A stretch of 64,000 nucleotides of DNA from Daphnia carinata (Eukaryota). The notes beneath the pieces were generated by a model. It did not search any database and was not told the origin of the DNA. It worked only from the letters and a program-made list of their open reading frames with translations. This document shows positions 10,967-53,050 of the stretch, in pieces; within the stretch, counting starts at the first letter, position 1, and each line of letters begins with the position of its first letter. The stretch is taken from contig NC_081332.1 of the NCBI RefSeq assembly GCF_022539665.2, forward strand, positions 6,944,001-7,008,000, given 5' to 3'. A program made the position numbers and the translations under genes.

Positions 10967-11167
10967 GCAGGGTTGGACTATTGCGATAAAAAAAAGTATC
11001 GTGATAGTATCGCAGTATCGCGATACTGCCGGCACCGGTACCGCAACATTTCTTTTAAAAAATATCGGTAGCGGTATCGGAAGTATAAATTGAGTCTTGC
11101 GATCCCGATACTTTTAATACATGGCGCCATATAGGAGCCAAAAATATTACTACCATTTCTGTCAACA
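10967..11167. mobile_element. Possible terminus of a hAT-type non-autonomous element, interrupted by the Tc1-like insertion
   Basis: CAGGGTTGG start followed by dense GTATCG/CGATAC subterminal repeats. The matching other end was not found. Confidence 0.4.
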
Positions 11168-11169
11168 TA

Positions 11170-21304: not shown

Positions 21305-21507
21305 TGTAAAGTTTCCAAATCCCGTGTACTTGCAGTGAGTTGCCGAAACAACTCCGCCTTACATGTTACAATCATGCAGTACTTATACTACTAAAGGATA
21401 CAGATATTGAAGGTAAAGTGGGAGGAGATAAGTCCACTTTCAGTTGTAAAACGCTTGAGGAATGTATGAGGTGTGGCTTCCTTTGGATAGCCTTTGGGCT
21501 CGTTACA
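21305..21507 (-). repeat. 3' LTR of element A
   Basis: TGTAAAG...CGTTACA, 203 bp, with an adjacent PPT (aagaggggaaggaa on the minus strand). About 11 mismatches to 51583-51785 by eye. Confidence 0.95.
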
Positions 21508-21775: not shown

Positions 21776-22297
21776 TTAAGTTTTAGTCAGGGAATTACTG
21801 TTATGTTTTAGTTCCCATTTTTGGAATATGGTTTGCGCTCTTGTGCTGCATGTTTCTGATTCAGCCGCGTGTCCATGAGAATCTTTTATTCCTGCATCTG
21901 CTCCGTGTAGCAGTAAAATCTCGATCATGTCGATTCGGTTGAATCCGGTTGCTACGTGTAAGGCGGTTTCGCCTGAGTCGTCTTGTTGGTTGATATTGAT
22001 GATTCTCTTTGCGCAAATTTGGGTGGCCAGATCTTCTAGGCCATACATGGCTAAATAATGCAGAACGATTCTGCCGTCAGGTGTTGCAATGTTGATGTTA
22101 GTTGGTGTCCATATTAACTTTGAACATTCTTGGTTTTTGTGTGAGATTGCCAACATTAAGGGAGTTTCTCCGTTGTAGTTGCGAGCTGTAAATTCGCAGT
22201 TGTTATGTTTTAGGATCCTAAGTAACAGTAGATCATTTTCGGCCGCTGCGATATGGCCAATTGTTTTTCCGTGGTAGAGGTTCTCCAGCGCGAGCAC
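21776..22297 (-). CDS. Ankyrin-repeat protein carried between env and the 3' LTR of element A (5' end degraded or uncertain)
   Basis: Four ANK repeats: GKTIGHIAA, GETPLMLAI, GRIVLHYLA, GETALHVAT...LLLHGAD. Intronless and in the same orientation as the element. Confidence 0.88.
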   Translation of the reverse strand: MLALENLYHGKTIGHIAAAENDLLLLRILKHNNCEFTARNYNGETPLMLAISHKNQECSKLIWTPTNINIATPDGRIVLHYLAMYGLEDLATQICAKRIININQQDDSGETALHVATGFNRIDMIEILLLHGADAGIKDSHGHAAESETCSTRAQTIFQKWELKHNSNSLTKT

Positions 22298-22607
22298 GAT
22301 GAAGAGATGTTGCCGTTTACAAGAATTTTAGAAAAACATTTTGTTTTCGAGCATAATTATATGGATACTGATGCTCCTGATGATTTTGTTATTGATTTCT
22401 GAGTCTGTTAGTTTTCTAGTTGTGTTATTCGGAAATACAAAATTGTTGTTTGAGTTTGGTTGTTTTGTTTGTTTTTACTATAAATTTTTCAAGTATTAGA
22501 TAGTGGCTGGGAGGGTGCTAATTTATTATGGAATTGCCTATAGCGGCAATATTGACTTGTTAGCGGATCATTGTTAATGGACTTCACTTTCAATAACCTT
22601 GGAGATT

Positions 22608-25244
22608 TCACTTTTTGGCTGAATTACTGCTGTCTGTTTCTGGCATGCACCGACATAGGTCTTTCCAGACCATGCCATACCCGACGACGTAAGTACATGT
22701 GGTATGTTTTCCTGTACAACCGTTTAGGTGTGTCAGCTTCTTTGATAGATGGGTAGATTGATGAATTTGGTGCGCTTGGCCTTGGTGGGCTCGTTTGAAC
22801 TTGTCTTTCAGTTGACAGCTGTGCGGGTGCGGACGTTCTTATGAATGGTTGTTCGATGACAATGTCTGAATGGTAATCTGTTTCTCGTGCTGGTAGCATT
22901 GATACGAGTTCGTGTTGTTCCTCTATGCGATCGTCGCATTTTCTTGTAGGCTTCTGGTTTCTACGGATATGATTTTTAATCTTCAGATAGGGTTGCAAAT
23001 GATGAAGATCCGTAAGCATACGAGAAATAGCACAAATCCAATTGCTGAAAGACCTATTATTTTCAATTTGTCGAACCATGAGAACATATGATCTATCTGA
23101 TTATCTTGTTGTTCTGACATCACAATATCTCCAGAATTGGAATTTCCCTCTTGCAATCTGCCTACTAGGTCATTCAGGATATTTAATTGATCCATCTCCA
23201 TTGTCGCGTGTGCTGAGTGACTTTTCAGCGAGAAGTCGAAATTATTAAGGTGGAGTTCTTCAAATTCTGTAATGAGGTCTAGATTAGGCATGTTAATGGT
23301 AGGTTTCTGGCGTATCCAATCTCCTGTTGTAGAATTGCGTTCCCAGGTATGTGGATTTCCATTTAAATTTACTAACGGCGTTTTCCAAAAACAATCGGAA
23401 TATGGGTGAATTGACCATCCATCTGTTCCGATCGTACAATTCTTTCCTTCGTAAGTAAAGAACGGTTGAAATCCGCATTTTGTTTCGTTTGCTGATATAA
23501 AAATCCTTTTGGCTTCGCATTGTTGAAGTGTCATTGCTTGACCGAAGCCTTGTAATCTCGTGCAGATAGGTAAGCCTACTGCAGCTGCAGCCAAAATGCA
23601 TTGGTTTGGGCTAATATAACAGCTTGTGTTCTTTTAATTGCTGATAGTTGACAATAAACGTCTCGAATTTCTTTTGCAAGCTTGTTCTCGTGTTCCGTTT
23701 CGATGCTGATTTTATATTGGTCGTGCATTTTATTTAATTCTTATTTAATTTTGTCGTTGAGTTTTTCAATATTGTTCGGTAGACCGCTCTCCAAATTTTC
23801 ATTAATTAGTGAATCTTCAGTGTTCTGATCTATTGAAATTATCAGGGATTCTGCGGGTGGTAATTTTTGAATGTTTTTTTCCTCGATGGCCTGAATTTGA
23901 CTATATTCTGTTGTAGTCGTTGTTTAAGTTGTTGCTAATGGGGTCATTCCGCTTGTCTGTGTTAATGACTGCGGAGTCGTCGAACTTTCCTTTACTTTTG
24001 TCGTACTCGGCGTAGTCGAGCTTGGCTGATGCGTTATTGTTGTTGCTGTTGTTGTGGAACTTGTCGTTGTGGGCGTTGATGTTGTTGCTATTGTTGTGGA
24101 ACTTGTCGTCGTGGGCGTTGTTGTTGTTGTTGACATAAGCTTTGTAGTTGTAGTGGTTGTTGAGGTTGAAGTTACTTTAGCAGTTGTCGTAGATCTAATA
24201 GTAGTAGTGGTGGGCTTAGTGCTTGTTGACGTGATTATTGGTTTTGTAGTTATGGAAGGTTTTGTTGTTGTTGATGTCATACTGGGTTTGGTTGTCATTT
24301 TTTGCGTTATCGTTGCTTTGTTGGCTGCTGTGCTTGTAGCTGACTTACTTGTTGTCGTGGTTTTACCGTTGTTTTTGTCGTCGTTCCCAAGGTTGTTTTT
24401 ATTATGGGCTTTGTAGTCGTCGTAGCGCTTGTCGTTTTTGTGGATTTTTCTGTTGTGGGCGTGGCAGGGAGAGTGACCATAGTTTTGTTCTTTTCTGATT
24501 GGTTGTTGATATCCCTTTGCATTAGTGGCGGTATAGAGGGGAGTGCTTTCCCGTCCAATGGCTGTTGAGTATGTAGCGCTATAATGGCTGCCGCTGAAAG
24601 TGTCCTTATTTGATGTGGGTTGCGATATTCAAAGCTAAATTGTTGTTTTTTACTGGAGCTGTGACAATGCCCCAGGCTCACACGTCCTACTCTTTGTGTT
24701 AGACACTTCCTATCTGATGATGGTGAATATAAACCAGTTCTATCTGTTGCCAGGAGTTGTCCTGTGTGTTCGTATGTGCCCCAGATTGAGCTTGTGTTGG
24801 CGCATTCCTGGAGAACGAGCATTGTTGTGTTGGCTTTTACACAGTTGTTCGTGTTGAACGGTCTGATGGTGAAATCAGAGGTATATTCGAAAGCTTGTCC
24901 TCGTTCTGTCGTTCTGCTGCAGTTAGCAACTGTAGTTTGTGATCGCACTAATGGGTCATTACTGGTTACCAGTGTTCTAGTTCTTCTTGACATTTGGTCC
25001 AATCCGCGTCGCATTCTTCTAGTGTCATCTGTTTGTTTATTCCGTGATGAGTCAGACACTCGGTGCTTTCCCATTTTTCAACAATCCCCAGTCAATCATG
25101 TCCCAGATTATATTTCCGCTGCCGGGATTAGTTTTTAAAATTCCTCCGAATATCGACGAATTAATCGTTGTTGTTATCGCTCTTCGCTGTTCTTGTTGTA
25201 TCTCCTGCATTTCCGCTAACGTTGTATCCGGGAAGTTTTCTTGG
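22608..25244 (-). pseudogene. Element A env-like glycoprotein, 3' portion (ricin-like domain 2, Thr-rich mucin, C-terminal ectodomain, TM, tail), frameshifted
   Basis: Homologous to the B env at 42215-44810. TM IIGLSAIGFVLFLVCLRIFIIC. Tail with PSAP and CTGKHTTC..DLCRC. A signal-peptide remnant survives at 36075-36151. Confidence 0.9.
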
Positions 25245-26528
25245 AGGTCGGAGAAAAAGGCCCAGACGAAAAAGGCCCACGAAAAAGGCCCATACGAAAA
25301 AGGCCCATACAAAAAAGGACCACTTTTTTTCAATTTTATAAGTGGGCCTTTTTCTCCAGTCAATTTCCATGTTCCTAAACACTTTATATATATACTTTAT
25401 ATACTTGTTTCCAAAATGTAATTCCAACCTCCTATTCCGTGGAAGTTGGAATGTACAAAGGTTGGTAAGATGTACATAAGGTTTGCCGAGATGAAACAAT
25501 GTTAGCTTATGTACGCTAGTTAATCTTTGATTATTTATTCGGTAGCAATCTGATTTCGGATTATGTTAGTATTTATATATTGCTAATATCCCGTTAAATA
25601 AAGTTCATTTTTCACAATTTATGTTTATTTAATTACTATCGCTTCTTCTAATATAATATAAGAAATATATGTTTTTCGCACTCAGCCTTGTTTTGTCCAC
25701 CCTCTTTGATCATGCCCCCCCCCAACCCTTAGTCCATCTCCTTTATAACTTCCCTTTGTCGATACCTATGCCATAGGTAAAGACCACTGATTTGTTGTGA
25801 ATACGGAAACTGAATGAGTTCCGCGTGGCTTTTGTGGTTGCTGGGAACAAAGATATGTTAATACGAAGACTAGTTTATTATTATTAACATTTGATAAATA
25901 ATTTTTATAGGAAGAACATTACAAACTTAAACTATCGTTTGAGATAAGGACAAATAAAACTATTATAATTCAATATTGATTCTCATACCATTTATTTCCT
26001 TATCACATTTTCAATTCTTTTCACGATTACAAAGAGCCTCATAAATATTGTTACGTTGGCAATATCCGATTCGCCACTGCAGTAGCGACAACAGCGCTAG
26101 GACGGAAATCCCGCCCCAATTATGGCCGTCCATTGGAGCACCACCCTCGTCGCCGGATATAAAAGGGGCGATATTGCACTTCTGTGTGGCTTTTTGATTA
26201 ATTGGTTAGGGCAATTAGTTTGCAGTTGTGTTATTAATCCTTTTGGTGAAATACACATTATATTTTAATCTGAAGCACGACGTCTCTATCTTGGTACAAG
26301 ATCCATCCGTGACATGGTGTAGATGCAGGGTAACACCTGTTAGGCTGAGTAAGGTAAGCGCAATTGTTGTTCTTTTCGCACGGGTCTTGGGGAGTTTTTG
26401 AATAAGGAACCTGGAGGCAGGTGCTGTTTAGGGGTCTTTGGGAAGTGTGACCGGCCGGCTAGAAAGTGCCTTAAATTGCCGTGGTACAGGACCACAGACC
26501 TGGCCGATTTCCTTGATTCGCTGTTAGG

Positions 26529-29500: not shown

Positions 29501-32024
29501 GAAGCTAAACGTCGTCTCTGTGCAAGATGTTTACCCACTACCGCGGATTGAGGAAACCCTAGCCAGGATGGGGAACGCCTGCATTTTTTCGACAATGGAT
29601 TTAGAAAGCGGATACTGGCAAGTGCCTATGGACGAAGCTGATAAAGCCAAAACAGCATTTATCACGCCCGACGGGCTCTACCAATTTTTGGTAATGCCGT
29701 TTGGTTTAGCTTCCGCTCCCGGAACATTCCAACGGATGATGGACCTGGTACTAGCCGGGCTCCGATGGACGATCTGCCTCGTCTACTTAGACGATATCAT
29801 CATCTACGCGGGGGATACCAGGGAACATCTAATACGACTCCGGCAGGTACTGAGTGCCTTACACAAAGCTGGATTAAAGATCAAACTAGTAAAGTGCCAA
29901 TTTGCAGCCCGGGAAGTAAAAGCCTTAGGGCACGTAATCAGCGGGGAAGGCATACGCCCAGACCCAGAAAAACTAAAGGCAATTGAAAAATTTCCGTCTC
30001 CGTGTTCCTTTCATAAACCCGCTGACCGACTAAAATGTGTTAGGAGCTTTATCGGACTCTGTTCGTACTACAGGCGATTCATTGCGCAGTTTGCGCATAC
30101 TGCTAAACCCCTAACAGACATGTTTTAAAAAAGGGCATGCTTTGTATGGAGAGAACCTCAAGAAGAAAGCTTCAATTTATTAAAACAAGCGCTGATCAGA
30201 GCCGCTACGTTAGCCTATCCTGATTTTTCCAAACCTTTCGAGATCCATCCTGACGCGTGCGATTACGGTCTTGGAGCGGTGTTGTTACAACGCATCGACA
30301 ACGTGGAGAGACCCCTCGCCTACGCGAGTCGTCTCTTGACAAAAGGCGAGAACAATTATTCCATCACGGAAAAAGAATGCCTCGCGATGGTCTGGGCGGT
30401 GAAGAAATTTAGAAGCTACATTTGGGGAATTGAGACCGTGGTTGTGACTGACCATCACGAGCTTTGTTGGCTGTTAAGTAAAAAGGATCTGGCCGGACGT
30501 TTGGCTCGTTGGAGCCTGCAATTACAAGAATTTTTACTAAGGATTGTACACCGTAACGGTAGACTGCATGCGGATGCGGACACGTTATCGCGTTATCCAG
30601 TCAACATTGTCACAGAAACAGATGTGTCACTACCCTGCATAGTGGCAGCCTTAAGTATCGATCATGACAATAAAGAGAAATTACAACGCGCCCAGCAAGA
30701 GGAATGGGATCAAGTGTTTGCTGCAATCAAACGAGGAAAACTCCGAGGGCAGTATCGGATTCAAGATGGCCTGTTATTCTGCGAGAAGATCGTCGATGAT
30801 GGACGACTCCTAAAACTGTGTGTACCCCAAACATTCAAAGAAGAGGTTATGCGCGCTTGCCATCATGACATCACGGCTGGACACCTCGGAACTAGACGCA
30901 CTCTAGCGAAAGTGCGAGCTCGTTACTATTGGTGGAAAATGGACGAAGACGTTAGTAGATTCGTTCGCAGTTGTCGAGAATGCCAATCACGTAAGTCAGT
31001 GTACCAGCGGCCAGCCGGGTACATGGAAGTAATAAAAACAGAACGTCCGTTTGAAAGGTTGGGAATAGATATCCTGGGACCGTTCCCACTATCAAAAATG
31101 GGGAACAAACACATCGTCGTGGCAGTAGATTATGTTACGAAATGGGCAGAAACTAGAGCGCTTCCGAGTGCCGACGCCAAAGAAGTGGCCGATTTCCTGG
31201 TAAAAAGTGTGTTGTTACGTCATGGCGCCCCGCGCCAGCTAACTACGGATAGAGGCCGCTGTTTCATCGCAGAACTCACCCAACATGTGGTGAAGGCCAT
31301 GGAGACTAACCACCGTATGACAACGGCCTATCGTCCGCAAGCGAACGGCTTGGTGGAACGGCTGAATCACACGCTGTCTGACATGCTTTCAATGTATGTC
31401 AGCTCAGATCATCGGGACTGGGATGAGTCACTACCCTACGTGACGTTCGCGTACAATACCAGCCGTCAAGAGACCACCGGAAAGACGCCATTTTACTTGG
31501 TGTATGGGAGAGAAGCCGTTCTCCCCATCGACGCGATGGTAGGCGCGGATCCCAACCCTGCGTCGCCAAAGGACAGGGATCCGACCGAATGGGCAATCGA
31601 ACGTCTCCAACAGGCACGATTGTTAGTGCAGGAGCGCGCAGCCCTTATACACCGTAACCAAAAGGAACAGTATGACAAAAGAAGGAGAGAAGCACCCACT
31701 TACCTGCCTGGAGACGAAGTTCTGGTGTACAAACCTATTCGAAAGGTAGGAAGATCGGAAAAACTTTTGAATCGATGGTATGGTCCATATAAAGTGGTAC
31801 GCCAGACCACCCCAAGCAACTACGAAATACGCCTAGGCCGCTCTCCCAAAACAGAGATAGTACATGTCGAGCGTATGAAATCATTCATTGATGTCGTTGG
31901 AACTCCGCCACCGCTCCCCAAGCCGGACAGCAAGGATGTATCCCCGGAAACGTCACAATCTAACTTACACGAGGCGTCGCCAACTGCCGCCCCAGAAGGG
32001 TCAGCGACCCCGAAACGAAACTGA
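26529..32024 (+). pseudogene. Element C gag-pol with one in-frame stop at 30126-30128
   Basis: Capsid-like gag, CHRCGRSDHIARNC knuckle, VIDTGA protease, VYLDDII RT, RNase H, HHCC and DDE integrase, GPY motif. ORFs 26529 and 30279 share a frame. Confidence 0.93.
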
Positions 32025-34080
32025 CGATGGTCAACGGAATCAGGAAAGTGATGTCAATGGAATGGGGACCCCGCCTGCAGAGGAGACGGTACCGGAACCA
32101 GGAATACCAACAGCAACCCCGGATGGGACTGGTTTAAGACGATCAGCTCGAGGAAGGATACCGAGGAAGCAATTCATACTAGCACTACCATTTTTCCTTT
32201 TGTTTTTGACACTAAACGCACCGTTGAAAATATCGGCAAAAGAGATCGTGGCCTACCAAGGAGTAATCTTCAAACCCGAAAAAGATGTAGCCTTCTCAGA
32301 CTCAGAATGGATAGTTGTCTCCGACTTCACCTTCGACACTCTAGAAAAAGTCATTAAACAATTACAGTTTATATTAGAAGTGCGAATGGGTACATTGATT
32401 TACCGGAACGACGCCTTGGAAGACAAATTCAAAGAACGTTTTCGGCGGCAGCTGAATGTTCGCACACAGGTAGAAATAGCAAAACTGCGTGAAAGCCATC
32501 TACGACTTAATGAGTTGAAGGAGGCCGTTGGAATAAAGGATCCAAGAAGGAAGAGAGCAATAGCTGATGGCGGAGGAAAGATCCTAAACTGGCTGTTTGG
32601 AGTAGCCACGCAGGAAGACCTAGAACATGTGAACGAGAGAATAAACAAATTATCCACAGAAACCACGTCAATTGTGCACGCCATGGAGGTTCACGCATCT
32701 CTAATTAATGAAACCTTGTGGGAAACTCAGGCTGCAGCAAAAGCCATCGGAGAGTTACGGGTCACCTTTAACCACGTCGAAGCCGAAGCATGGAAGGTCA
32801 GCCAACAAGTTGGAAGTTTTCAGCAAGAGATGGAGCGGCAAGCGTCAGCCACCGTGAAAATCGATAATGTCTTTCGACACGTTCAGAAATCCCTCGCTTG
32901 GATAGACGAATCGGTGACCAATTTCGCCGTTGGACTAGCGACAATGGCGACAGAAAGGCTACCAGCTACGCTTTTTCCGCCTAAGCAAGTAGAGTTAGTG
33001 TTAAAAGAAGTGAAAAACACCTTGCCAACGGGTTGGACGCTGAGTCCTTCAATCCAAATGGGTGATGTTTGGAAATTCTATAAAGAAGCCACAGTTTTAG
33101 TAGCCGCGGTAGATGACTTTTTAAGGATCTTTATTCACTTACCTGTGTTTGAATTTCCATTTAGCTTTACGCTTTACGAAGTGGTTAGTCTGCCGCGCCC
33201 GGTGAATGATGCGACACAAGGTGCCCAATTTCATCCTTTACCACCGTATCTGGCTGTGGCAACCGACCAGCAAACATTTGTGGAACTATCAGCAAAAGAC
33301 GCGTCTCGTTGCTTAACATCGCCCACGGCAATTTGTCCAATAAGTAGAGCCATCAACAAAAAACACCGCGAGCCGGGATGTGCCATGGCCCTATTTTTAA
33401 AAGATGAAGAATTAAGCCATAAGAATTGTGCAACCAAATTGTCAAAGTGGGATGGACAACAGACGGCGTATTTGGGAAACCGTCGCTGGGGTTTTTCTGC
33501 CGTCAAAGATACTACAATTACGATATCCTGTCCAAGTAATCGACGAACGTCAAATACGATAATCAAACGAGAGTCGTTCGACATATTCGAAGTGCCCATG
33601 TCCTGTTCGGTATATACAGATGACTAGATCTTCCAAGCCAGCCTCAAGAAAAATATCCGCCATTCTTCAGGCAATAGAACGCTCCCTTCTTTAGCCGAAT
33701 TAGAGGAAGAAGGACAAGTGTGGCAAGAGGACAAGGCACCTGATATCACAAACCTACGGCCTCGTTATATCACGGACTGGAACAATGTCACGTTGTTATC
33801 TCGCCGCACGATGACGCAAGCACGGATTTCCCTGATGGCACAACACTTACGGTCATTGGAAGAAGAGGAGCAAGAGAGAAAAGGCGTAGATCATCTAGGA
33901 ACAATTCGTTACCCCTACGAATGGGTCGCCGTACTGCTGGCTCTATGTACCGGCCTATCATTATTCGCGTTCTTCTCTCGCCGCTATGCCCTTTTCACGC
34001 TCGGAAATCTATCCAACCGAGTGGCTGAATTGGAACGCCGCCTTGCGACACATGAAGCGTTGATAGAGGAGGAAGTGTAA
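32020..34080 (+). pseudogene. Element C env-like class I fusion protein (errantivirus/baculovirus F-like) with a TAG at 33625
   Basis: Hydrophobic signal FILALPFFLLFLTL, furin site RRKR followed by fusion peptide AIADGGGKILNWLFGVAT, heptad repeats, Cys-rich region, C-terminal TM WVAVLLALCTGLSLFAFF. ORF 33718-34080 is in frame with 31888-33627. Confidence 0.88.
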
Positions 34081-36177
34081 TTTTACCTGCATTGGAGTAA
34101 TTTTATGTGTTTTTGTAGTCCCACAGTAGTCTGATTTTTTTTTACTTACTCTTTTTGGTGTTCACATTACTTTGTAGTAATTGATGGTTCCTTTCACTCC
34201 ATTTATTTGTTAAACTCACACAAACATCGGCACTAGAACGGCACTTTAGAAAAGCAGCGGGAACGATGTCTTGTAGGATCGAGAGTTAAGAACAGACTGA
34301 ATAGCGTGGGTGGAAAAGGACGCTAACTCGCCCACGCCATCTCTTGGCTGGCCGATGAGTATTTGTACCGCGAGCGCTAGATGGCGTGGCGGCTGCCCAA
34401 ACTTTTATTCGTAGAAAATGCTTTTATTTACTTTATCCCCTTTTATAAGTAAAGTCCATGTCGTGTAATCCCTCTCTTCCCCGTAACACACAAAAAAAAA
34501 AAAAAATTAGATTTTAGAATTCGACACAAACGCGATCGGGACGATTCGCGACTTAAGGAGGGGGATGTTACGTTGGCAATATCCGATTTGCCACTGCAGT
34601 AGCGACAACAGCGCTAGGACGGAAATCCCGCCCCAATTATGGCCGTCCATTGGAGCACCACCCTCGTCGCCGGATATAAAAGGGGCGATATTGCACTTCT
34701 GTGTGGCTTTTTGATTAATTGGTTAGGGCAATTAGTTTGCAGTTGTGTTATTAAGCCTTTTGGTGAAATACACATTATCTTTTAATCTGAAGCACGACGT
34801 CTCTATCTTGGTACAAGATCCATCCGTGACAATATATTAAAATCATAACCTACTGCTATAAATATGCCAAGCGATTACTGCTGACTGTTACCTTGGAGCG
34901 CTTTTCACCAAAGCAATAAATAGTTCGAGCAAAACTGGAATATGCAATTTGCGCAGGAACGTCTATGAGTCAAACTTAAATAGTTAATGCATGGCTTTTT
35001 TAAAGAGCAATATTTTGTGAAAGAATAACTTCACCTTTAGTCCGAAAGAACCATCTACGTCTCTGGTAATAACTCGCGTTTTTCCAGCTATTATAAATGA
35101 ATTTTTGCGTTTCGAGTCTTGTTTTCCCCCTTATGCATATTTTCAAGCAGCTATTGTTTACCTAATTATACATCATATACTACAGTGAAATATAATAAAG
35201 CTTTGCATTTGCGGTCAACAAAACTACTAACAATTACAAATCCATTTTAATTATTTTGTACCATTAAGGACTTCTTTTAATGAGTCTGTTATTAGTGAAG
35301 ACACTAAACCTTTTAAAATGAATCTAACATTTTTTTTTCTTCAAATTTTCCAAAATCATGGAAGGCATGCCAATGTATTTTTATAAAAGACTATCGCGCC
35401 ATGTCTTGCACATGAAAGAACACGAGTTTAGCTCATCTATGAGTTGGTATCAGTATTTCATACGATAAGTTTTCTTTTTTTTTTTTGATTTGGTTTAATT
35501 ACTTTATGTTCTGTCTTTTCAGTTTCTTTTTCTTAATGTTGGCTTTTCTCTTTTACTGTTGTTGTTCCTTTCTCTTTTCCTTTTCTTCAGGTTTCCAGGT
35601 CCAGTCTCACAAAACAAAGTCCTTCATGGTAGAAAACTGTGGCTCATAGACGTTCCTACGCAAATTGAATATTCCAGTTTTGCTCGAACTATTTATTGCT
35701 TTGCTGAAAAGCGCTCCAAGGTAACAGTCAGCAGTAATCGCTTGGCATATTTATAGCAGTAGGTTATGATTTTAATATATTTATTAGGCTCTTTGTAATC
35801 GTGAAAAGAATTGAAAATGTGATAAGGAAATAAATGGTATGAGAATCAATATTGAATTATAATAGTTTTATTTGTCCTTATCTCAAACGATAGCTTAAGT
35901 TTGTAATGTTCTTCCTATATAAATTATTTATCAAATGTTAATAATAATAAACTAGTCTTCGTATTAACATATCTTTGTTCCCAGCAACCACAAAAGCCAC
36001 GCGGAACTCATTCAGTTTCCGTATTTACAACAAATCAGTGGTCTTTACCTATGGCATAGGTATCGACAAAGCCTTGATGGAATGAGATATTGAATGGAGA
36101 TATTGATGGAATGATGGTTAGTAAGTGGATGAATATTATTATCAGTTCCATCTGTGAAATAAAAATTTGAAGGTTTT

Positions 36178-40169: not shown

Positions 40170-40372
40170 TGTAAAGTTCCTTATACCTCGTGTATTACAG
40201 TGGATTGTCGTAACAATTCCGAATTTCATGGTACAAACATGCAGTATTTATACTACTTAAGAACACACAAATTGAAGGTGAAATGGGAGGGGATACGTTC
40301 ACTTTCACTTGTGAAACGCTTGAGGGATGTAAAGGGTGTAGCTGTCTTTGGATAGCCTTTGGGCTCGTTACA
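40170..40372 (-). repeat. Internal LTR (3' LTR of element B), a diverged variant
   Basis: TGTAAAG...CGTTACA, 203 bp, same PPT as A. Clearly more diverged from the outer LTRs in its first ~120 bp. Confidence 0.93.
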
Positions 40373-40592
40373 TTCCTTCCCCTCTTCAATAATAAGAATT
40401 GGTCCACCAATTTGCTTTTTCCGTCACCGTCTACAGTTGTTGCTATGGATGAATAATAAAACTTGTTCCTTCACCAAAAACATATAAAAAAGAGTCATAT
40501 GTGTTTTTTAAAAAGATTGTTGACGTAGTGCCTCCTTTCTTTTCTGCTTTGATTCTAGCTTTTCTTTCTGCCTGGTATTTCGGCTATATTGA

Positions 40593-42214: not shown

Positions 42215-45200
42215 TTACTTTTTGGCTGAATTACTGTTGTCTGTTTCTGACATGCAACGACATAGGTCTTCCCAAACCATGCCATACCCTACTACGTAAG
42301 TACATGTTGTGTGTTTTCCTGTGCAACTTTTGGGTGTGTCGGCTTCTTCGATAGATGGGTAGATTAATGAATTTGGTGCGCTTGGTCGTGGAGGGCGCAC
42401 TTGACCTTGTCTTTCCATTGTCAGTTGTGTAGGGGCGGGTGTTCTTACGAACGGTTGTTCGATGGCTATTTCTGAATGATAATTTGTTTCTCGTGCCGGT
42501 ATCATTGATGCCAGTTCGTGGTCTTCCTCTATGCCATCATCGTATCTGCTTGTAAACTTCCGGTTTCGGCGGATATGTTCTTTAATCTTCGAGATGGGGT
42601 TGCAAATGATGAAGATTCGTAAACATACAAGGAATAGCACAAATCCAATCGCTGAAAGGCCTATTATTTTCAATTTGTCGAACCATGATAACATGTGACC
42701 TATCTGATTATTTTGTTGCTCTGACATCACAATATCTCCAACAGAATTGGAATTTCCTTCTTGCATTCTGCCAACTAGGTCATTTGGAATATTTAATTTT
42801 TCCATCTCCATTGTCTCGTGTGCTGGATGACTTTTTAGCAAGAAGTCGAAATCATTTAGGTGGACTTCTTCAAATTCTGTAATGAGGTCTAGATTAGGCA
42901 TGTGGATGCTAGGTTTCTGTCGTATCCAATCTCCTGTTGTAGAGTTGTGTTCCCAGGTGTGTGGATTTCCATTCAAATTCACTAACGGTGTTTTCCAAAA
43001 ACAATCGGAAAATGGATGAATTGACCATCCATCTGTTCCGATCGTACAGTTTTTTCCTTCGTAAGTAAAGAACGGTTGAAATCCACATTTTGTTTCATTC
43101 GCTGATATAAAAATTCTTTTGGCTTCGCATTGTTGAAGTGTCATTGCTTGACCGAAGCCTTGTAGTCTCGTGCAGATTGGTAAACCTACTGCTGCTGCGG
43201 CCAAAATTCCATTTGTTTGAGCTAAGATAACAGCTTGTGATCTTGATGATGGCTGATAGTTGACAATACATATCTCGAATTTCTTTTGCGAGTTTGTTCT
43301 CGTGTTCTGTTTCAATGCTGATTTTGTATTGGTCGTGCATCTTGCTTATTTCGTATTTAATCTTTTCGTTGAATTCCTCGATGTTTTTGGGGAGACCGCT
43401 TTCTATATTTTCAGTATTTAATGATTCTTCTGTTTTCTGGTCCATTAACAGGGATTCTGCTGGCGGTAAATGTTGAATATTGTCTTCTTCTATGGCCTGA
43501 ACTTGATTTTTTTCTGTTGTAGTCGTTGTTTCTGCTGTAGCTAATGGGGTCATCCTGGCTGTCTGTGTTGATGGTTGTGGGGTCGTCGAACTCTCTTTTA
43601 CTGTCGTCGTACTTTGCGTAGTTGTGTTTGGCTGGCGCGTTGGTGTTGGAGCTGTTGTTGTGGAACTCGTAGTGGGCATAGTTGTCGTTGACGTAGGCTT
43701 AGTAGTTGTACTTGTTGTTGAAGTCGAAGTTATTTTTACAGTTGTCGTAGGCCTAGTTGTAGTGGTAGGTTTAGTGCTTGTTGACGTGATTATTGGCTTT
43801 GTAGTTGCTGGGGGTTTTGATGAAGTTGACGTCATATTTGGCTTAGTAGTAATTCTATGCGTTGTTGTGAGTTTGTTTGTTGCTGTGGTTACAATTGGCC
43901 CAATTGTAGTCGTAGTTTTTACCGTTGTTTTTGTCGTTGTTCCCAATGTTGTTTTTATTGTTGGCTTCGAAGTCGTCGTCGCGCTTGTCGTTGTTGTGGA
44001 TTTTTCTGTTGTGGGCGTGGCAGGGGGCGGGGCCAATGTTTCATTCTTTTCTGATTGGTTGTTTACTTCTCTTTGCATCAGTGGTGGAATGTATGGGAGG
44101 TTTTTCCCGTCCAATGGGTGTTGAGTGTGTAGTGCAATGATGGCTGCCGCTGAGAGCGTTTTTGGCTGGTGGGAGTTCCGATATTCGAAACTAAAATGTT
44201 GTTTTTGGCTGGAGCCGTGACAATGCCCCAGGCTCACTCGTTCTACTCTCTGTGTGAGACACTTTCTGTCTGATGAGGGTGAATGTAACCCCGTTCTATC
44301 TGTCGCCATGAGATGCCCTGTGTGTTCGAATGTGCCCCAAACTGAACTGGTTTTAGCGCATTCCTGGAGCACTAACATTGTCGTTTTGGCTTTGATACAT
44401 GTGTTTGTATTAAAAGGTCTGATGGTAAAATCAGATGTGTATTCGAAAGCTTGTCCTTGTTTTTTTGTTCTGCTGCAGTTAGCAACTGTAGTTTGTGATC
44501 GCACTAATGGGACATTACTGGTTACAAGTGTCCTTAGTTCTTCTTGACATTTGGTCCAATGCGTGTTGCATTCTTCTAGTGTCATCTGTTTGTTTACTCC
44601 GTGGTGTGTTAAACAGTTTTCATTCGGTGCTTTTCCATTCTTCAATAGTCCCCAGTCAATCATGTCCCAGATTATATTTCCGCTACCGTGGTTAGTTTTT
44701 AAAATTCCTCCGAATAGTGGCGAATTAATCGTGGTTGTGATTGCCTTTCGTTGTTCTTGCTGAATTTCTTGCATTTCTGCCAAAGTGGTGTCCGGGAAAT
44801 TTTCTAGGATGTCTGGATTGGTGTTTACAGTTTCGAAGATCCATTTTTGTGTTATGCTGTTTTTGTCCTTTCTGCACTCTGTTAGTATGATAGTTTGTTG
44901 GTTTCCGAGTGTAATACAGAGGTTTGATTCCTGTGAAATTAATTGATAATTTTGTTGATCTAGGATCCATCTTGTAGAATATTCTGAACATTTGGCCACG
45001 ATCACTCTGGCTGCTTCTCCTTCTGTGATACATATATCACCGTTCTGCACTCGGATTGTTTGGTCAACGATGTATTCGAATTCTGATCCTTGTGGAAGTG
45101 GATCATCGTTTTTGAGACGAAAGTATGAGGTTACCTGGTTGCTTTCTTCTGGTTTGTATATTATGTATATCGTTGCGTTGTAATTCACGAACCGGTCTTT

Positions 45201-46254
45201 CTCTCCGATTCTGACTGATTGTGGATATCCCATTCTGATTGGTCCCCAGGCGTACGAAATGCTGTAAAGGCGTTTGCCTGAGTCTTCAAGGGGAGTGCTG
45301 ATCAAGAACGTAACTTCCTGCTGAATGGATCGTTTCCGTTTGGTTAACTGTAGTTCCCTGTAGTCCTTACACACCGATGTATCTAGGTGAGTGTTCTGAA
45401 TGCATGTATGTATAGTTGTTTTGAACATCTCGTACAGTTTTCTCGTAGTTTCAGTTGGAAAGATTAGGTATGTGAGCGGTATGCCCATAACTTTGTAACC
45501 TTGTGGTGTTATGTCCCGATCTGGTTTTAGTTGAGGAATGAAATCTCGATCTGTCGATTGGTGTCGTAGAGACGGCTGGTGTTTTCGTGTTCTGGCAATC
45601 TTGGGAGTTCTAAACTCCTTTAAGCAGTGTTTGTATGTATGAATTGTTTGTTGTTCTGTCTACCCACACAATTGTATTCTGGTTCTGGATGAAGTGTCCT
45701 TCTTGTTGTGTTGTGTTCAAAGGTCCGAAAGGACTTTCGATTAGGTCGTCTGGTTTTTCTTGTTGTAGCGTGATTCGTTCTGCTACACAGTTGAGGGTAT
45801 GGTATTGTTTTATGGCATACCATTGCCCTTCGCCTGTCGGAGTGGCTGTAAAACTTAGTCCTGCTGGTCCGGTCTGCATGTTGTTATCGCCACACTTCTT
45901 GTCGTTCACCATTCTCCAGCATTCCAGTGGGGTAATTAGTTTAGTTTCTTGTGTATATATTGTGTCGAAAGATCCGATCCAAAATGATCCAGTTATTTTC
46001 TTTGTTTTTATCCATTGCTTGCAGGTCCAGCCTTTCCAAGAAGCTGCTGGTTTCTGTGTCGTTTTTAAAGTGTACAACGTGGATATTCTGGGTAAGTGAG
46101 CTGTATCTGATTCTTTGTTGTTGCAGTAATATGGTGCTTCTATATCTAAAATTCCTCTGGTCTTTACGTTCTTGCAGTCGCATACGGTTGAATAGATGGG
46201 ATATGTGGATGGAATGATGGTGAGTAATTGGATGAGTAATAGTATCAGTTCCAT
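42215..46254 (-). pseudogene. Element B env-like glycoprotein (~1,350 aa reconstructed): class III-like fusogen with two ricin-B-like domains and a mucin region; several frameshifts
   Basis: Signal MELILLLIQLLTII; CDC..C; GWTC..FWIG..ITPLEC..QWYA..IVW; KRKRS; beta-trefoil-like C/QxW/QxF repeats; Thr-rich tract; helix; FGQAMTLQQC..CGFQP; TM; tail. Joined from ORFs 45610-46254, 43095-45488 and 42215-43315. Confidence 0.85.
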
Positions 46255-46277: not shown

Positions 46278-48900
46278 TTAGAATCTCGATACTTCGTGGC
46301 GTTGCCGTAAGTTGTATCGTGGATTCGTCATTCTAGTGCGTGCAGGATTATCTGGTATGGGACCGGGGATATTTGGTGCGATGGTAATACAATTCTCCGC
46401 CCTTGCTGTTTGACGTATATGCGTTCTAGGGACAGGCCTTCTTACGTTGTTACTGAAGTTTGATGATCATGATTTGCTCGTAAAATTCCGTTGATTAACG
46501 GTATAGGGACTACTAATTTTCCTTGTCTATCTGTTAATAGACCTTTTTCATTGATAATAAAGTTGCTTGAGAATTTCTTATTTCTATTTTTCTGGCTATC
46601 TTCTTGTATTTTCATCATTAGTTTTTGACAATATTTATCTGCTTGCTGTAGTTCTATCCATCTGTCTTCTCTCCAAGACCTTTTACTTTCACTTCCAAAT
46701 TCTCTTTCGAAACCTACGCTCTTCTTTTGAAGACTTTCCCTCTCAAAACTTTCGCTTTCGTTTTGAATACTTCCATTTTCTTTCTCTAGGTGTTCTTGTT
46801 TCTTTAATCTTTCGATCCTTAGCTTTTCTTTTAGTCTTTCACTTTCTTTTCAAATATTTTCAAGCTCTCTTATGACGGTTCTTTTTTCCATTGCCCTTGT
46901 TTCTACTCGTGCTAGTGGCACTATGGGAATACGGCTTAGGGTGTCAGCATTTTGGTGCGACTTCCCAGGCCGGTACCCAATGACGATGTCAAATTCTTGT
47001 ATTTTTAGTGCCCGTCTAGCTAATCTTCCTGCGGGTTCTGTCTTGCTCATTAGCCATTCTAAAGGTCTATGGTCTGTAAATACGGTGAATCTGCGTCCGT
47101 ATAGATATGTCCTAAACACGTCAATTGCGTGGATGATTGCGTAAGCCTCTTTCTCTGTGGTTGACCACTTGGCTTCGCGGTCGTTCAGATGTTTAGAGCT
47201 ATACGCTATGACGACTTCCACGCCGTCTGATTCACGGGGTTCCTGTACGTCGGACTCCGCTGAATCCGCTGATCGAGGTAGAGTCTGCATCTGAGCCAAG
47301 ACTGCTCCTATACCATATTCTGAAGCATCTGTGTAGATGATAAATTCGCGCGTGAAATCTGGATACCCTAGGATAGGTCTAGTTATGAGACAGTTCTTGA
47401 TACAATCAAAGGCGTCCCTTTGTTCCTCTCCCCATTTCCACTCGGCTGGTTTTCTTGTTAGCGCTGTCAGTGGGTGGGCTTTATCAGCAAAAGCCCTGAT
47501 GAATTTTCTGTAATAGCTAGCCAAACCTAAAAATGATCTCAATTCTTTCACGTTTTTGGGAGCTGGGTATGTGATGATCGCTTCTAGCTTTTCGCATTTC
47601 TTTCTTTTCAACTTTAGTCCTGCGTCTTTAAGAAGCTTAAACACTGCTTCTAGATGTGTCACATGTTCAGCAATATCATTGCTGAACACTATGATGTCAT
47701 CCAGATAAACCAATGCAAACCTGAACAACACTGATTTCAATATGTTATTCATTGCTCGTTGGAAAGTGCATTTGTTGGTGCATTTGTTAGTCCAAATGGC
47801 ATTCTATTGAATTCGTATTGTCCAAGTTCACAGATGAAGGCGGTTTTGTGTTTGTCACTTTCTGCTATCTCGATATGCCAGTAGCCACTTAGTAAGTCCA
47901 ATGTTGAGAACTAAACTGATCCGCTCAATGCATCAATGGTGTCGTCAATTCTTGGTAATGGGTATATATCTTTTACGGTTATTTTGTTAAGTGCCCTATA
48001 GTCAATACACATACGCATCTCTCCATCTTTTTTGGGAACCATTACATTTGCTGCTGCAAATGGGCTGTGACTTTCTCTAATAATATTGTTATAAATCATT
48101 ACTTCAATTTTTGTTTTGACAATTAGTTTTAATGCTTCTGGTGTCCTGCGCAATCGTTGAGTTATTGGGGCGTTATTTCCTATGTTAATGGAATGTTTTA
48201 CATCAGTTGCTAGTCCTAAATCTGATTCTCTCTCTGCAAATAGAGCTTCGTGTTTGTTCAATAGATGTTCGATTTTAATGCGTATCTCGTCAGGGATATT
48301 AGTCACTTCACTTTCTTGGGTTTGTCCAATTCGTTTTGATTTTTGGTTAATTTCTGATTGGGAAAAAGATTCTAGGCTGCGATAATCTGCTTCTGTCAGA
48401 TCGTTGTTGTAGTTACTATCTGATGATCGATCTGGGAGGAGTGGGATATTAATACCTGCCTTGCCAAAAGTTATGCTGTATACTGGGAGTGTGTTTTTTC
48501 CAAAGCTATGTTCTTTCCCGGAATGATCGTAATTGATCTGACTGTTTTTAGTATTAATTTTTACATTGTTGCTCGATAAGAATTCTAATCCTAATATGCA
48601 AGTTTCGTTTAAGTTTTCCATAATAAAGAAATCATGCTTAATGACGTGATTGGTGTTAATGGTGATTGAAAATCCATATTTCCCTTTTGATTTTAGTATT
48701 TCTCCTGACACCGTTCTAAATATTGGCGAAGGGGAGCCTTTAACTTGTTAAAGTTCTTCATACTCCTTTAGATTAAAAAATATGTTGTCTGAAACTAAAC
48801 TGGCTGCTGCTCCTGTGTCTACTAAAGCTTTAATTTCTTTTCCAAAAATTCTAATGGTTATACGTATTAGTTTGGGTATCGCTGTTTCTAAATTTTGTGT
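46278..48900 (-). pseudogene. Element B pol (PR-RT-RH) with the integrase core deleted
   Basis: ALVDTGA, VYLDDII, TDASEYGIGA. At ~46465, ANHDH joins directly to the integrase C-terminal tail, so ~1.1 kb present in A is missing. Confidence 0.92.
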
Positions 48901-48929
48901 TGGAGCGTTGTTTGGTAGGGATATTGTGT

Positions 48930-51438
48930 TTACTGCATTGGACGGTGGTTCGGGTTGTTGATACATGCCATATCCGTCCAACATTCTCGCGCAATGTGTA
49001 CTCTTTTATTGCACTTGTGGCAGATAATAATTCTATTTCCTAGGTTGTCAGTGGTGTTTGGTTGATTTTGTCGTGGCTGTGGGTATTGATGAGTATAGGA
49101 TGGGTTTTGATGATACACCTGTTGATTGCTATGCGGTTGAAAGTTCGGTCGATTGTAGTGTATCGGTCTGTTGTTGTACGGAGGTCTCTGGTGTGTTTGT
49201 TGGTAAGTTGGGTAATTAGGTTGCCTATACCCTGTGGAGGTACCTTCTCTTCTTGGTGAAGTATAGTTGGTGCGGTATGGGCTGTTATCTCTGCTTCGAT
49301 TGAAGTTTTGGTCACTAATGGAGCCTCTGCTATTCGGTCTATCGTGAAATCGGACTCGCGGATTTTGTGGTCTGGAGTATCGATCACTTGATCGCGAAGA
49401 AGATCTTTGTTCGTACTGATCTGCGGCTGCTATGGTTATATCGGTATCCTGTGACAATTCACGATTTTTATTAGTATTTTCCAGTTCACGTATTTTTTAT
49501 TTTAGGAATTCGATTTCTGTCTTTTGTTGTGAAAGTTCGTTATCTTGTTGTTTCTCGTGATGCGTTATCCCTGCGATTACCGCTTTTATTTCTTTCCCTT
49601 CTGCAGTCTCCTTGCTATATAGGATGCCTTCGGATATGATAAGTTGTTTACATAACTGATCAAAATCTTTGGGGTCTTCGGGCATTCTGAAATAGAGTTC
49701 AGCTCTGAATTTTGGTAAAATGCCCTTGCATCAGAATTTTGATTTTGGTATAGTCTCTCATTCTTTTTACTGTGTTTATGAGTCGGCCTTCGACGATGGT
49801 CTGATTTTTCTTCTTTGCCTTCAATGGACTCGTAGAGGCTGTTGATTCTTTAAATAAAGGCTTTGCATTTCTCTTCAGGTTTTTGTCTTAGCGTAGATAA
49901 CTTTTTTCTTTGTGCTGCTAAGTCGTATGCATCTTGGAATCTTACAATAATGGCAGTTTTCCATTCGTCAAAACCTAACTCGTCACCTTGCCCTTCTACG
50001 TAGTTTCCAAGCCATTCTAGGGCATCGCCTTTAAGTCTGTCGGAGAAGAATCGTATTTTTTGGTTGTCATCCCAGTCGTTGTTGCGTGCTACATGTTCTG
50101 CGTCCTTTAGCCATTCTTTTATTAATTTATCAGTACTTTTCCCTTTGAAAATTGGAATTGACTTTTTGTCTTCTCTCGAAAATAATTCTCCTAATGCTTT
50201 CACAATCGGTTGGGTTGTGGATGTATCGATGCTATCGCTATCCGTTGTGTCGCGGTCAATTCTCGAAGTTTCTTTGTGTGAAAGTTCACATTTTGACTTT
50301 TTCTTTGAGAGTCTGATACTTTTGTTTTAGTTGAAGGAGGTTATCGTTTTGGATCTCGATTTGGTTTTTTAGGTCGTCGTTAAGTTGTTGTAGCTTTTCG
50401 ACTTGTTCTGATTCTAGCTCGAAGTGAAGGGATTTGTCTCCTTCTGTTATTGAGTTTAGGTCGTTTATCTCACTCACTAGTTTCGTTATTTCTCCTGGTT
50501 CGTTGTAGGCGTCGAAGTCTTCGACTTCGGCGAATGTTACCTGTTGCTTTCTATATTCTTTTATTCTATTCTCCAGATACGAAATTTTTTCTTTTCGGTT
50601 TCCTGCCTGTATATTGGACTTTTGTAATTCCGTTTCGAGATTTTTATTCTTTGTAGTACTATCTATCAGACTTCTTCGTAAACCTGCTTTTTCTGCTAAG
50701 GTTTTTTCAAGGATCTCTTTTGTTTCTTTTGTTTCTCTCTGAAGTTGTTTGTTTGCTTCTAAAGCTGCTTTTATCCGTTGTTCGGCGTCTTCTAACCTCG
50801 TAACCAGTTGTTTTCTTTCAACTTCAAGTTTGCTAATTATTTCTTGCCCTTCTCTCTCAACAGCTATATTGTTTTCGTCCTTTTTTCGTAAAAGGTTTTG
50901 GTTCTCTGTTGCTGTGGCAGTTTCAAGGTTGGTTTCTAATTCGCTGATTCGATTGGCATACTTTTCAAGGGCGTTTTTGAGTGCTTCATTACTTTCTTGG
51001 AGTTGCTCAAGGGAACTACTTAGGGTGTATTTGGAACTGTTTGCCTTTTTCTTGTTGCTATCTAGCTGTTTTCGTATACCTTGTAACTCGTAGTTTAAGT
51101 CAGATGAATATTTCTTGTCAGCTATCTGCGCAAGTATTACTTCTTTTTGGAGGACTCTGATTGTACCGAATAGGAATTCTTTTTCTTTACCATGAACAAT
51201 GCTAATCTGTTGCAATATACTGTAAAGGTTTTCAGTGTTGCCACCGAGGGATTCTACGTGATTTTTAAATGGCTTTGTGGTGTTTGTAATAGTTTCTGCT
51301 GTTATACCACTTGGTGCTTGCAACGTTTGTTCTAACTATGAATATAATTGCAATGCGTTGTGTGTCTCTTTGCTAACTTCTTGTTTCTTAGATTCTATTT
51401 GTTGTATATGTGCTTTTGTCGTAATGGTCTGATGGCAT
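48930..51438 (-). pseudogene. Gag of the A/B family: long N-terminal coiled coil, capsid-like domain, Arg/Gln-rich linker, degenerate Zn knuckle
   Basis: ORFs 50286-51323 (heptad-rich), 49850-50203 (PIFKG..EWL..AE..ARNNDW..LKGDALEW) and 48930-49457 (CHKCNKRVHIAREC). Confidence 0.88.
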
Positions 51439-51582: not shown

Positions 51583-51785
51583 TGTAAAGTTTCCAAATCC
51601 CGTGTATTTGCAGTGAGTTGCAGAAACAACTCCGCCTTACATGTTACAATCATGCAGTATTTATACTACTAAAGGATACAGATATTGAAGGTAAAGTAGG
51701 AGGAGATACGTTCACTTTCACTTGTGAAACGCTTGAGGGACGTATGAGGTGTGGCTTCCTCTGGATAGCCTTTGGGCTCGTTACA
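51583..51785 (-). repeat. 5' LTR of the A/B compound
   Basis: 203 bp, TGTAAAG...CGTTACA, about 95% identical to 21305-21507 by eye. Confidence 0.95.
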
Positions 51786-53050
51786 CCTTCTTTCTTCCTC
51801 CAAAAAGTTTCCCTACCTTACCTAATTTATCTCTCTATTTTCCTCCACCTCTAAATCCTTATTTTCCTGGAGCGGTCTGTTGTACGGTTACGAACTTGAG
51901 TTTAGCAAAGTTGTCCTTCCACCTTCAGCGGTAGGGTCCCCTCTACCCGCACAAGCTTGTTGTCAACGCCTCTAAGTTTATTTTTCGGTGCCTTTCGATG
52001 AGGGTCAAAAAATTTTGAACGAGGCTTACCCGTACAGCACCACATTACCACCGAGTCGACAAATGTGGTGATCTCTTTACGTTTACTACCCAGACCTGGA
52101 TAAGGGGCAAGGCTGGCCGCCTTTCAAACAAAATAAATCCTTTTAGAGGCGCCGATGTCCCCATCGTTTTTTGCCGGACAATCCCTAGCTATAATATGAC
52201 CTCGTCGATTGTATGAATAGCACAAATTTTGTGGGGAACCTCTCAGTTTAAATCCACCACCCATCCGCGGAGCACTTTGTCCTTGATTAACTGCCATCCG
52301 TGACACCGAAGACGAAATTTGGTTGGCCAAGCGGTCTCCCAGATTTTGAAAGAGTCCTGCGTTGCTGGAGCAGCGACATTTTTCGGAGGGGCTGTGAAGA
52401 CAGGGGGCGTCGTTTGTACAATTGGCGTAAGTGTAGACGCGGCTACACTTAGCAGTGGAGGCGTCAACCCAAGTTGTGCTTTTCCTCCGCCCAACCCTCT
52501 AACCCAGCTACATACTCAATAAGCCCTTGCACATCCCCAACCGTAGAAGAAGCGTGGTATGGAGCTGACAGCGATCGGCGAAGAACGGACTGTCTGCGCA
52601 GCTGACTAAGCGGCAGCAAGTGCTTGAATAGCCTCGTTTTTTGTTGTTGTTGTTTGTTAATAATTCCGAGATATGTGATTCAGCCTCCCCGAGTTAGGCC
52701 ACTTGATTCTGTTTCACCGCTGCTACTGCTTCAGCAAACCTACTCAGCGCCAGAACCAGCTCGGCGCTGTCTGCATATCTGAGGGTACGGTTGTTTCTCC
52801 CGCAAAGACAAACACCAACTTGGGACAGTTCGTTTTTGTCGCTGGACGAACAATACGAGCTCTTGCTGTTGGATGGTGAACCTTTCCCCTCTGGTTCCGA
52901 AGGTAATACTGTGATTCGAAGCCAAAAAAGGGATCTGTGACGTCAGGATCCAAATCCGACATGCAGAACCAGTAATAACCGAAAATACGAAAATGAAGGA
53001 AAAAAACAAGAGGCAAAACAAAAAAAAAACGGAAAAAAGATGCTAAATGC
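51786..53050 (-). pseudogene. Remainder of element D: degraded gag and protease
   Basis: Degenerate knuckle CYSYNRRGHIIARDC and a protease-like VDS site. Collinear with the D pol to the left of 21305. Confidence 0.65.

Follow-up and report, generated by a model that had tools for sequence, protein, structure and literature searches.

Introduction

In retroviral Env proteins the binding unit stands before the cleavage site, and in adenovirus and reovirus fibres, the filovirus GP mucin domain, RSV G, the collectins and the ficolins a binding head is carried on a trimeric or extended stalk. Target-cell recognition by env-carrying retrotransposons is an open question for nearly all elements outside Drosophila, according to the main text of PMC13524379. 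A close described relative of the element studied here is Dcar_errantivirus_6 of Branchiopoda C2c, listed there as ENV_HSV with seven copies and a tRNA primer site that was not found (Chary and Hayashi 2026, PMC13524379). In prefusion HCMV gB, as described in the text of PMC7935361, the domain III helices lie on the three-fold axis and the cleaved tether that joins domain II with domain III is the membrane-distal knob.

We analysed a window of 64,000 nucleotides of Daphnia carinata (contig NC_081332.1, positions 6,944,001 to 7,008,000 of the forward strand), in which a sequence-only reading had noticed tandem ricin-B-like domains and a mucin-like stalk inside a retroelement env. The text of PMC13524379 describes five domains, I to V, for HSV/gB-type errantivirus env proteins; to these the env of the window, in a broken copy, adds two predicted beta-trefoils and a stalk.

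Element and env gene

The element is of the Ty3/gypsy LTR type, with a Ty3 capsid, RT and RNase H upstream of env and LTRs on either side (Table 1), and the gag-pol-env order was also found in two related loci (L008 and L014). In the env of copy B both a signal peptide and a C-terminal transmembrane helix were read by eye, and the ORF 43095-45659 (minus strand, 854 aa stop to stop) holds the trefoils and the stalk. The gene has two frame breaks, one between about 45616 and 45527 (~45,570) and one near 43,245; it is decayed and cannot yield a protein in a single frame. With these two breaks and the integrase missing, copy B does not qualify as an intact errantivirus. By eye, no TGG-type primer site was seen beside the upstream LTR, and ARAGORN found no tRNA genes. 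The copy A env, 83% identical to that of copy B at the DNA level, lacks trefoil 1. The second domain and the stalk had been described as conserved in copy A with a varying stalk length; both are retained and the stalk is about 50 bases longer than that of copy B, but both are frame-broken.

Table 1. Features of the copy B element, its env gene and the copy A env remnant, with positions in the window
Feature	Position	Strand	Basis or remark
Upstream LTR of copy B (TG...CA; about 204 bp)	51583..51786		
gag and pol of copy B, decayed (protease, RT, RNase H; without integrase)	46455..51335	-	
env of copy B	starts 46254, ends near 42218	-	spread over three frames
5' part of env, made up of a hydrophobic signal peptide (from Met 46254), domain I and the start of domain II	45616..46254	-	
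Two aromatic fusion-loop motifs of domain I	45990-45973, 45834-45817	-	conserved; set by eye against the domain I-II row of Dcar_errantivirus_6
End of the domain II region, past the frame break	45342..45527	-	frame switch in tblastn of unbroken relatives
KRKRS, furin-like cleavage site at the domain II/insert boundary	45341-45327	-	
Predicted beta-trefoil 1, two Cys pairs, first subdomain Cys-free	44823..45260	-	predicted model, VIA-align, Pfam
Predicted helical linker joining the trefoils	44664..44822	-	predicted model, low confidence in second half
Predicted beta-trefoil 2, three Cys pairs and a helical insert with a fourth pair	44178..44663	-	model, VIA-align, dN/dS
Helical insert of trefoil 2	about 44564-44475	-	predicted model
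Thr/Pro/Ser-rich stalk, 176 aa	43509..44036	-	T 45%, P 11%, S 10%
Domain III central helix, start near 43367	43245..43367	-	frame break near 43245
Domains III-V, transmembrane helix, cytoplasmic tail with His/Cys motif	42218..43243	-	
env transmembrane helix	about 42667-42602	-	judged by eye in translations and alignment
LTR downstream of copy B	40170..40373		
env remnant of copy A: linker, trefoil 2, longer stalk, core	22588..25249	-	several frame breaks

Every motif quoted in the sequence-only reading was located in this ORF on the minus strand (FEYIVDQ at 45080, QKWIFE at 44849-44832, WGLLK at 44654, QHFSFE at 44201-44184). The first domain had been taken to begin too late: its true start lies about 180 bases upstream (about 45260), outside the span that had been noted. 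The KRKRS motif is present as reported; with Lys instead of Arg at P4 it is furin-like and does not match the strict R-X-K/R-R form. The cytoplasmic tail ends in a His/Cys motif (42319-42254, minus strand), which is conserved across the env family and is possibly a zinc-binding module.

A predicted class III fusogen

Compared by eye, 149 of the 160 domain I-II residues of Dcar_errantivirus_6 are identical to those of the window, and the env lineage is therefore one already catalogued in PMC13524379. Since this N-terminal part is about 93% identical to that of a catalogued HSV/gB-type errantivirus, the prediction for the env is a class III fusogen of gB type, not a retroviral SU/TM protein. The earlier reading had correctly placed the module inside a retroelement env; the gB-type identity and the membrane-anchored placement of the module had escaped it. 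With herpesvirus gB and the class III glycoproteins of rhabdo-like, chu-like and xinmo-like type the env has in common the N-terminal aromatic loops, the long central helix and the cleavage loop between domains II and III.

We modelled P0026, an unbroken relative that shares 27% identity with the window in the insert (pLDDT 58, pTM 0.29). Foldseek matched this model in the PDB to PRV gB (6esc, E 3.5e-10), to HSV and VZV gB and to other class III entries, and also to ricin-type B chains (ebulin, E 3.6e-12); the BFVD matches were rhabdo-like, gB, xinmo-like and chu-like glycoproteins. The insert and the poor placement of the domains keep the global TM-scores to gB low (0.12-0.19), so that the match backs the domain folds and not their arrangement. 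Among the best 50 structural matches of VIA to the full P0026 model only trefoils were found, without gB ranges, and searches of PDB sequences, by phmmer with the 854-aa ORF and by a profile of the core, gave no match. An atlas search with P0129 yielded leads below 0.9 to gB and Monjiviricetes fusion clusters; nine pattern matches in IMG/VR viral contigs included no relative. An F-type (class I) env was considered and rejected: Baculo_F reached 14.9 bits against a cut-off of 24.1, near the transmembrane region only, and what follows the furin-like site is a trefoil and not a hydrophobic fusion peptide.

The insert lies between domains II and III, past KRKRS and ahead of the long domain III helix. 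Cleavage as predicted would leave the trefoils and the stalk as the N-terminus of the membrane-anchored subunit, projecting, by analogy with gB, from the tip of the trimer. Relative to the cleavage site the module stands on the side that carries the membrane anchor, the reverse of the retroviral order. The corresponding HCMV gB loop amounts to about 46 unresolved residues according to the text of PMC7935361, whereas in the env proteins with the insert it has 130-845 residues with folded domains.

Trefoil domains and stalk

The Pfam Ricin_B_lectin profile (PF00652) matched the ORF in two stretches (E 1.3e-15, 58.1 bits, cut-off 29), and a scan of this kind, together with structure prediction, was what the earlier reading had proposed as a check. 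The segment 45260-44175, folded with ten relatives (mean pLDDT 72.6), gave a model of two beta-rich domains. Trefoil 1 (model residues 1-146), in which the pLDDT per 10-residue block is 70-90 over most of the domain, aligned by VIA-align to actinohivin and the lectin domain of mGalNAc-T1 with Z 15.5 and rmsd 2.1-2.4 A, 115 residues being aligned at rmsd 2.1. For trefoil 2, 136 residues aligned to 5foy_A (Z 13.4, rmsd 3.6 A), and two-domain lectins aligned over the entire trefoil-pair model with a large rmsd. Both domains are predicted, in line with these models, to be ricin-type beta-trefoils. They share 29% identity over 55 aa (E 5e-7) and, by this similarity, are related to each other. Atlas searches with the insert led to Ricin_B clusters; when the trefoil model was compared with BFVD, the named matches in the top 50 included no viral fusion glycoprotein. 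The three-fold Cys-paired repeats were recovered in both trefoils, with the corrections that trefoil 1 has two Cys pairs and that trefoil 2, with eight cysteines of which two lie in the helical insert, has a fourth. The stalk, put at about 170 residues in the earlier reading, has the 176 of Table 1, and by composition it is the long Thr/Ser/Pro-rich tract expected of a mucin-like segment.

R-type lectins such as the ppGalNAc-T domains, the ricin and ebulin B chains, CBM13 and actinohivin have the same fold, Cys pairing and QxW-type motifs, and the tandem pair resembles the ricin and ebulin B chains. The window domains differ from them by identities of 13-23%, a 50-aa helical linker between the trefoils, the lack of Cys in the first subdomain of trefoil 1 and the missing canonical Asp/aromatic site. 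In the family alignment the cysteines are retained at 25-30% identity, and most of the invariant columns hold Cys, Trp or a hairpin residue; a conserved surface patch was not identified on the trefoils. A host gene or a toxin gene was rejected as the identity of this ORF, the domains being in frame within env.

The ricin 1-alpha site comprises Asp22, Asp25, Gln35, Trp37 and Asn46, and R-type sites accept substitutions that shift the sugar preference, as stated in the text of PMC8705660. In the five Cys-paired subdomains of the window the canonical Asp is replaced by Thr or Lys and the stacking aromatic by Ala, Thr, Glu, Gln or Gly. Among the relatives listed we counted 194 Cys-paired subdomains in 49 proteins by a pattern that missed one Asp case (P0073): an Asp two after the first Cys occurred in 3/194, an aromatic two before the second Cys in 4/194, and both together in none. 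Judged by these residues, the window trefoils and the listed family lack the canonical galactose site, and the term glycan-binding, as used in the sequence-only reading, finds no support in that form. Beta-trefoils elsewhere use other surfaces to bind sugars or proteins, so the env trefoils may bind through another surface.

Distribution among relatives

A profile of the domain III-V core retrieved 511 representatives at E <= 0.001 among 1.84 billion, of which the best 150 were used. Pooled with other matches, 63 covered domain I/II and the core, and removal of one duplicate left 62. Among these listed relatives, which span domains I-III, trefoils are absent in 15, single in 19 and paired in 28 (P0046 and P0068, whose trefoil matches came in three pieces, were scored as two-trefoil proteins), and in all 47 bearers the trefoils sit at the same single position. 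In the 15 insert-free env proteins listed the loop measures 13-41 aa in 14 and 120 aa in one. The trefoil profile was seeded partly with segments that were then counted, and Pfam was used as a check: Ricin_B was found at E <= 0.05 in 14/19 single-trefoil proteins listed and not in the other five. From signal peptide to transmembrane helix the gene is in frame, with the domains inside it, in unbroken relatives that include P0008, P0009, P0013, P0017, L011 and L014-L017. Relatives with an organism name were all from Daphnia among the matches listed. By eye, about 11 of the 15 Branchiopoda C2 rows shown in PMC13524379 resemble trefoil-bearing lineages and four resemble the insert-free P0149.

In an unrooted tree of the core (64 rows) trefoil number is clustered, with 7 changes against a shuffled mean of 28.3. 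All 30 two-trefoil rows fall in a starred group of 36 together with five one-trefoil rows and one insert-free row, 13 insert-free rows make up one starred group, and one-trefoil rows are found in several deeper groups. As viral class III proteins have no such insert, we infer that the trefoil was gained, then duplicated and then lost in some lines. Three close relatives (P0029, P0030, P0049) have lost one or both trefoils, which means that the module is dispensable or that those copies are defective. Two sister env proteins (P0087, P0091) carry other inserts in the same loop, namely a 120-aa Cys-containing segment without a trefoil match and a weak trefoil between long helical stretches.

The spacing from the last trefoil to the core is 94-437 residues in 29/30 two-trefoil env proteins listed. 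Many of these stalks are Thr/Ser-rich; those of P0014, P0015, L013 and L014 contain little Thr/Ser and many helix formers. Of 500 shuffles, 13 and 25 reached the heptad signal of L013 and L014, and 202 and 195 that of P0014 and P0015, with 24 stalks tested. In L006 (152-4186) 54+38 Gly-X-Y triplets replace the Thr-rich stalk in frame to the transmembrane helix; L005 (41-3253) has 93 such triplets, after which the ORF stops; and P0244, P0276 and P0279 hold Collagen and Ricin_B in the same record. The stalk chemistry is swappable, being Thr-rich, collagen or helix-rich.

A loose cleavage motif ahead of the insert was found in 29/30 two-trefoil, 5/19 one-trefoil and 3/15 insert-free env proteins listed, a contrast partly due to chance, because the stretch searched is longer in the two-trefoil proteins (median 70 vs about 32 aa). 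The strict R-X-K/R-R motif occurs in 9/30, 3/19 and 3/15, respectively. Most one-trefoil env proteins among the relatives listed have neither stalk nor cleavage motif.

A donor search with the trefoil alignment gave 73 proteins (160-657 aa), the named ones all from Daphnia, with no donor outside env evident. The best structural matches of P0026 domain 1 were ppGalNAc-T lectin domains (Z 18.4 and 17.7), which we take, from this model, as a lead toward a host donor of the trefoil only. Databases already bear an automatic Ricin_B label on env proteins, and the name 'Ricin B lectin domain-containing protein' is borne by many Daphnia gene models that match the env insert; by sequence, these are probably element fragments and not host immune lectins.

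The main text of PMC13524379 makes no mention of ricin, lectin, trefoil, mucin or ankyrin; in its seven text supplements lectin is absent and ricin occurs once, inside a species name. The figures, including Figure 5-figure supplement 1, may depict extra domains, as some of its lineages were modelled with AlphaFold. The text of PMC5408684, on extra ORFs of rotifer elements, does not mention lectin, ricin, ankyrin or collagen. In the literature searched, mostly outside subscription journals, no account of a retroelement env with a trefoil came to light.

Selection

The ratio dN/dS was estimated from the single pair of copies A and B. It is 0.115 in trefoil 2 (154 codons) and 0.107 in the core, 0.05 in the linker (52 codons), 0.38 in the stalk and 0.24 in the tail. 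By this pairwise estimate, trefoil 2 is under purifying selection.

Function of the insert

We lean, by a modest degree, to the view that the trefoils and the Thr-rich stalk are a built-in attachment antenna which binds a cell-surface ligand outside the canonical ricin galactose pocket. The fold match, the insert position, the conservation in the family and the selection on domain 2 are the part of it that the data bear out. By analogy with herpesvirus gB, the env would form a trimer with the domain II-III loop at its membrane-distal tip on the three-fold axis. Once cleavage had freed the trefoils at the N-terminus, three stalks would extend from the coiled coil of domain III to the outside and keep the heads at a distance above the particle; ligand binding would bring the particle to its target cell, and the domain I loops would then fuse the membranes. 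The stalk would act as a spacer with exchangeable chemistry. A collagen helix requires three chains and a free end, and collagen stalks fit the antenna for this reason. Head and stalk here are within the fusogen chain and run on into its central coiled coil, unlike the arrangement in viral attachment proteins, collectins and ficolins.

The trefoils might instead cap the tip of the prefusion trimer or control its triggering, to be displaced by proteolysis or pH, the ligand being secondary or absent. The missing sugar residues and the structural look of the conserved ones suit this reading, as do 11/13 listed short-stalk, one-trefoil env proteins that have no cleavage motif and carry the domain directly between domains II and III; for env proteins without stalk or motif a fixed cap fits equally well. 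We nevertheless judge it unlikely overall, because stalks of 94-437 residues, some of them collagen, would place the heads far from the core, and duplication of the domain with growth of the stalk in one clade suits avidity and reach better. Less probable again is a pair of classical galactose/GalNAc R-type lectins with an O-glycan shield. The R-type fold, the presence of ppGalNAc-T lectin domains (Z 18.4) and of type 2 RIP B chains among the best structural matches, the 55% Thr+Ser of the stalk and the tolerance of R-type sites for substitutions that alter sugar preference (PMC8705660) speak for it; the 0/194 listed subdomains with both Asp and aromatic speak against the lectin. The glycan shield of the sequence-only reading, taken as the main role of the stalk, is hard to reconcile with collagen, helix-rich and short stalks that look non-glycosylatable and take the place of the Thr-rich one. 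The two broken copies of the window and the relatives without the insert would suit a module that was captured as a neutral passenger, or one that is an artefact of sequence decay. Both possibilities the selection and conservation results exclude, with hardly any doubt left: dN/dS is low in domain 2 (single pair), unbroken relatives are in frame from signal peptide to transmembrane helix, and the cysteines persist at 25-30% identity.

Returning to the attachment antenna, we put forward a wider scenario tentatively, as one that may well prove wrong. In Daphnia errantiviruses a class III fusogen would have acquired an R-type domain at the trimer tip, with a host ppGalNAc-transferase as a possible source, duplicated it and gained a cleavage site and swappable stalks, and the resulting collectin-like antenna would set which cells (e.g. 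germline) or hosts are entered. The env family supplies a discrete, foldable candidate for a binding domain, about 140 aa long and open to expression by itself. Its members also form a natural series in which the number of heads runs from zero to two and the stalk is of several types. Moreover, the family indicates that a class III fusogen can accommodate in its domain II-III loop as many as about 845 residues, a collagen tract among them.

Surroundings of the element

A third LTR of about 204 bp lies at 21305. Between 21305 and 51786 the order is LTR, copy B, LTR, copy A, LTR; identity is 94% between the outer LTRs and 82% for the middle one. The gag of copy A lacks its 5' part. In copy A an ankyrin-repeat ORF follows env (21776-22327, minus strand), and such an ORF was found in 10/10 downstream ORFs scanned in related loci (L003, L005, L010, L011, L015, L016, L017, L019, L022, L024); it is a conserved fourth ORF of the element family. 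Copy B gave no match to it.

The copy A env is split by an element with inverted ends (25754-36071), in which a second Ty3/gypsy element is nested (26049-34831, plus strand; LTRs 99% identical). The latter has an F-type env (Baculo_F, E 8e-25), and an F-type and a trefoil-bearing env thus stand side by side in the window. Furthermore, a Tc1/mariner-type element is located at 11167-13629; its inverted repeats measure 580 bp and its transposase ORF spans 12135-12983.
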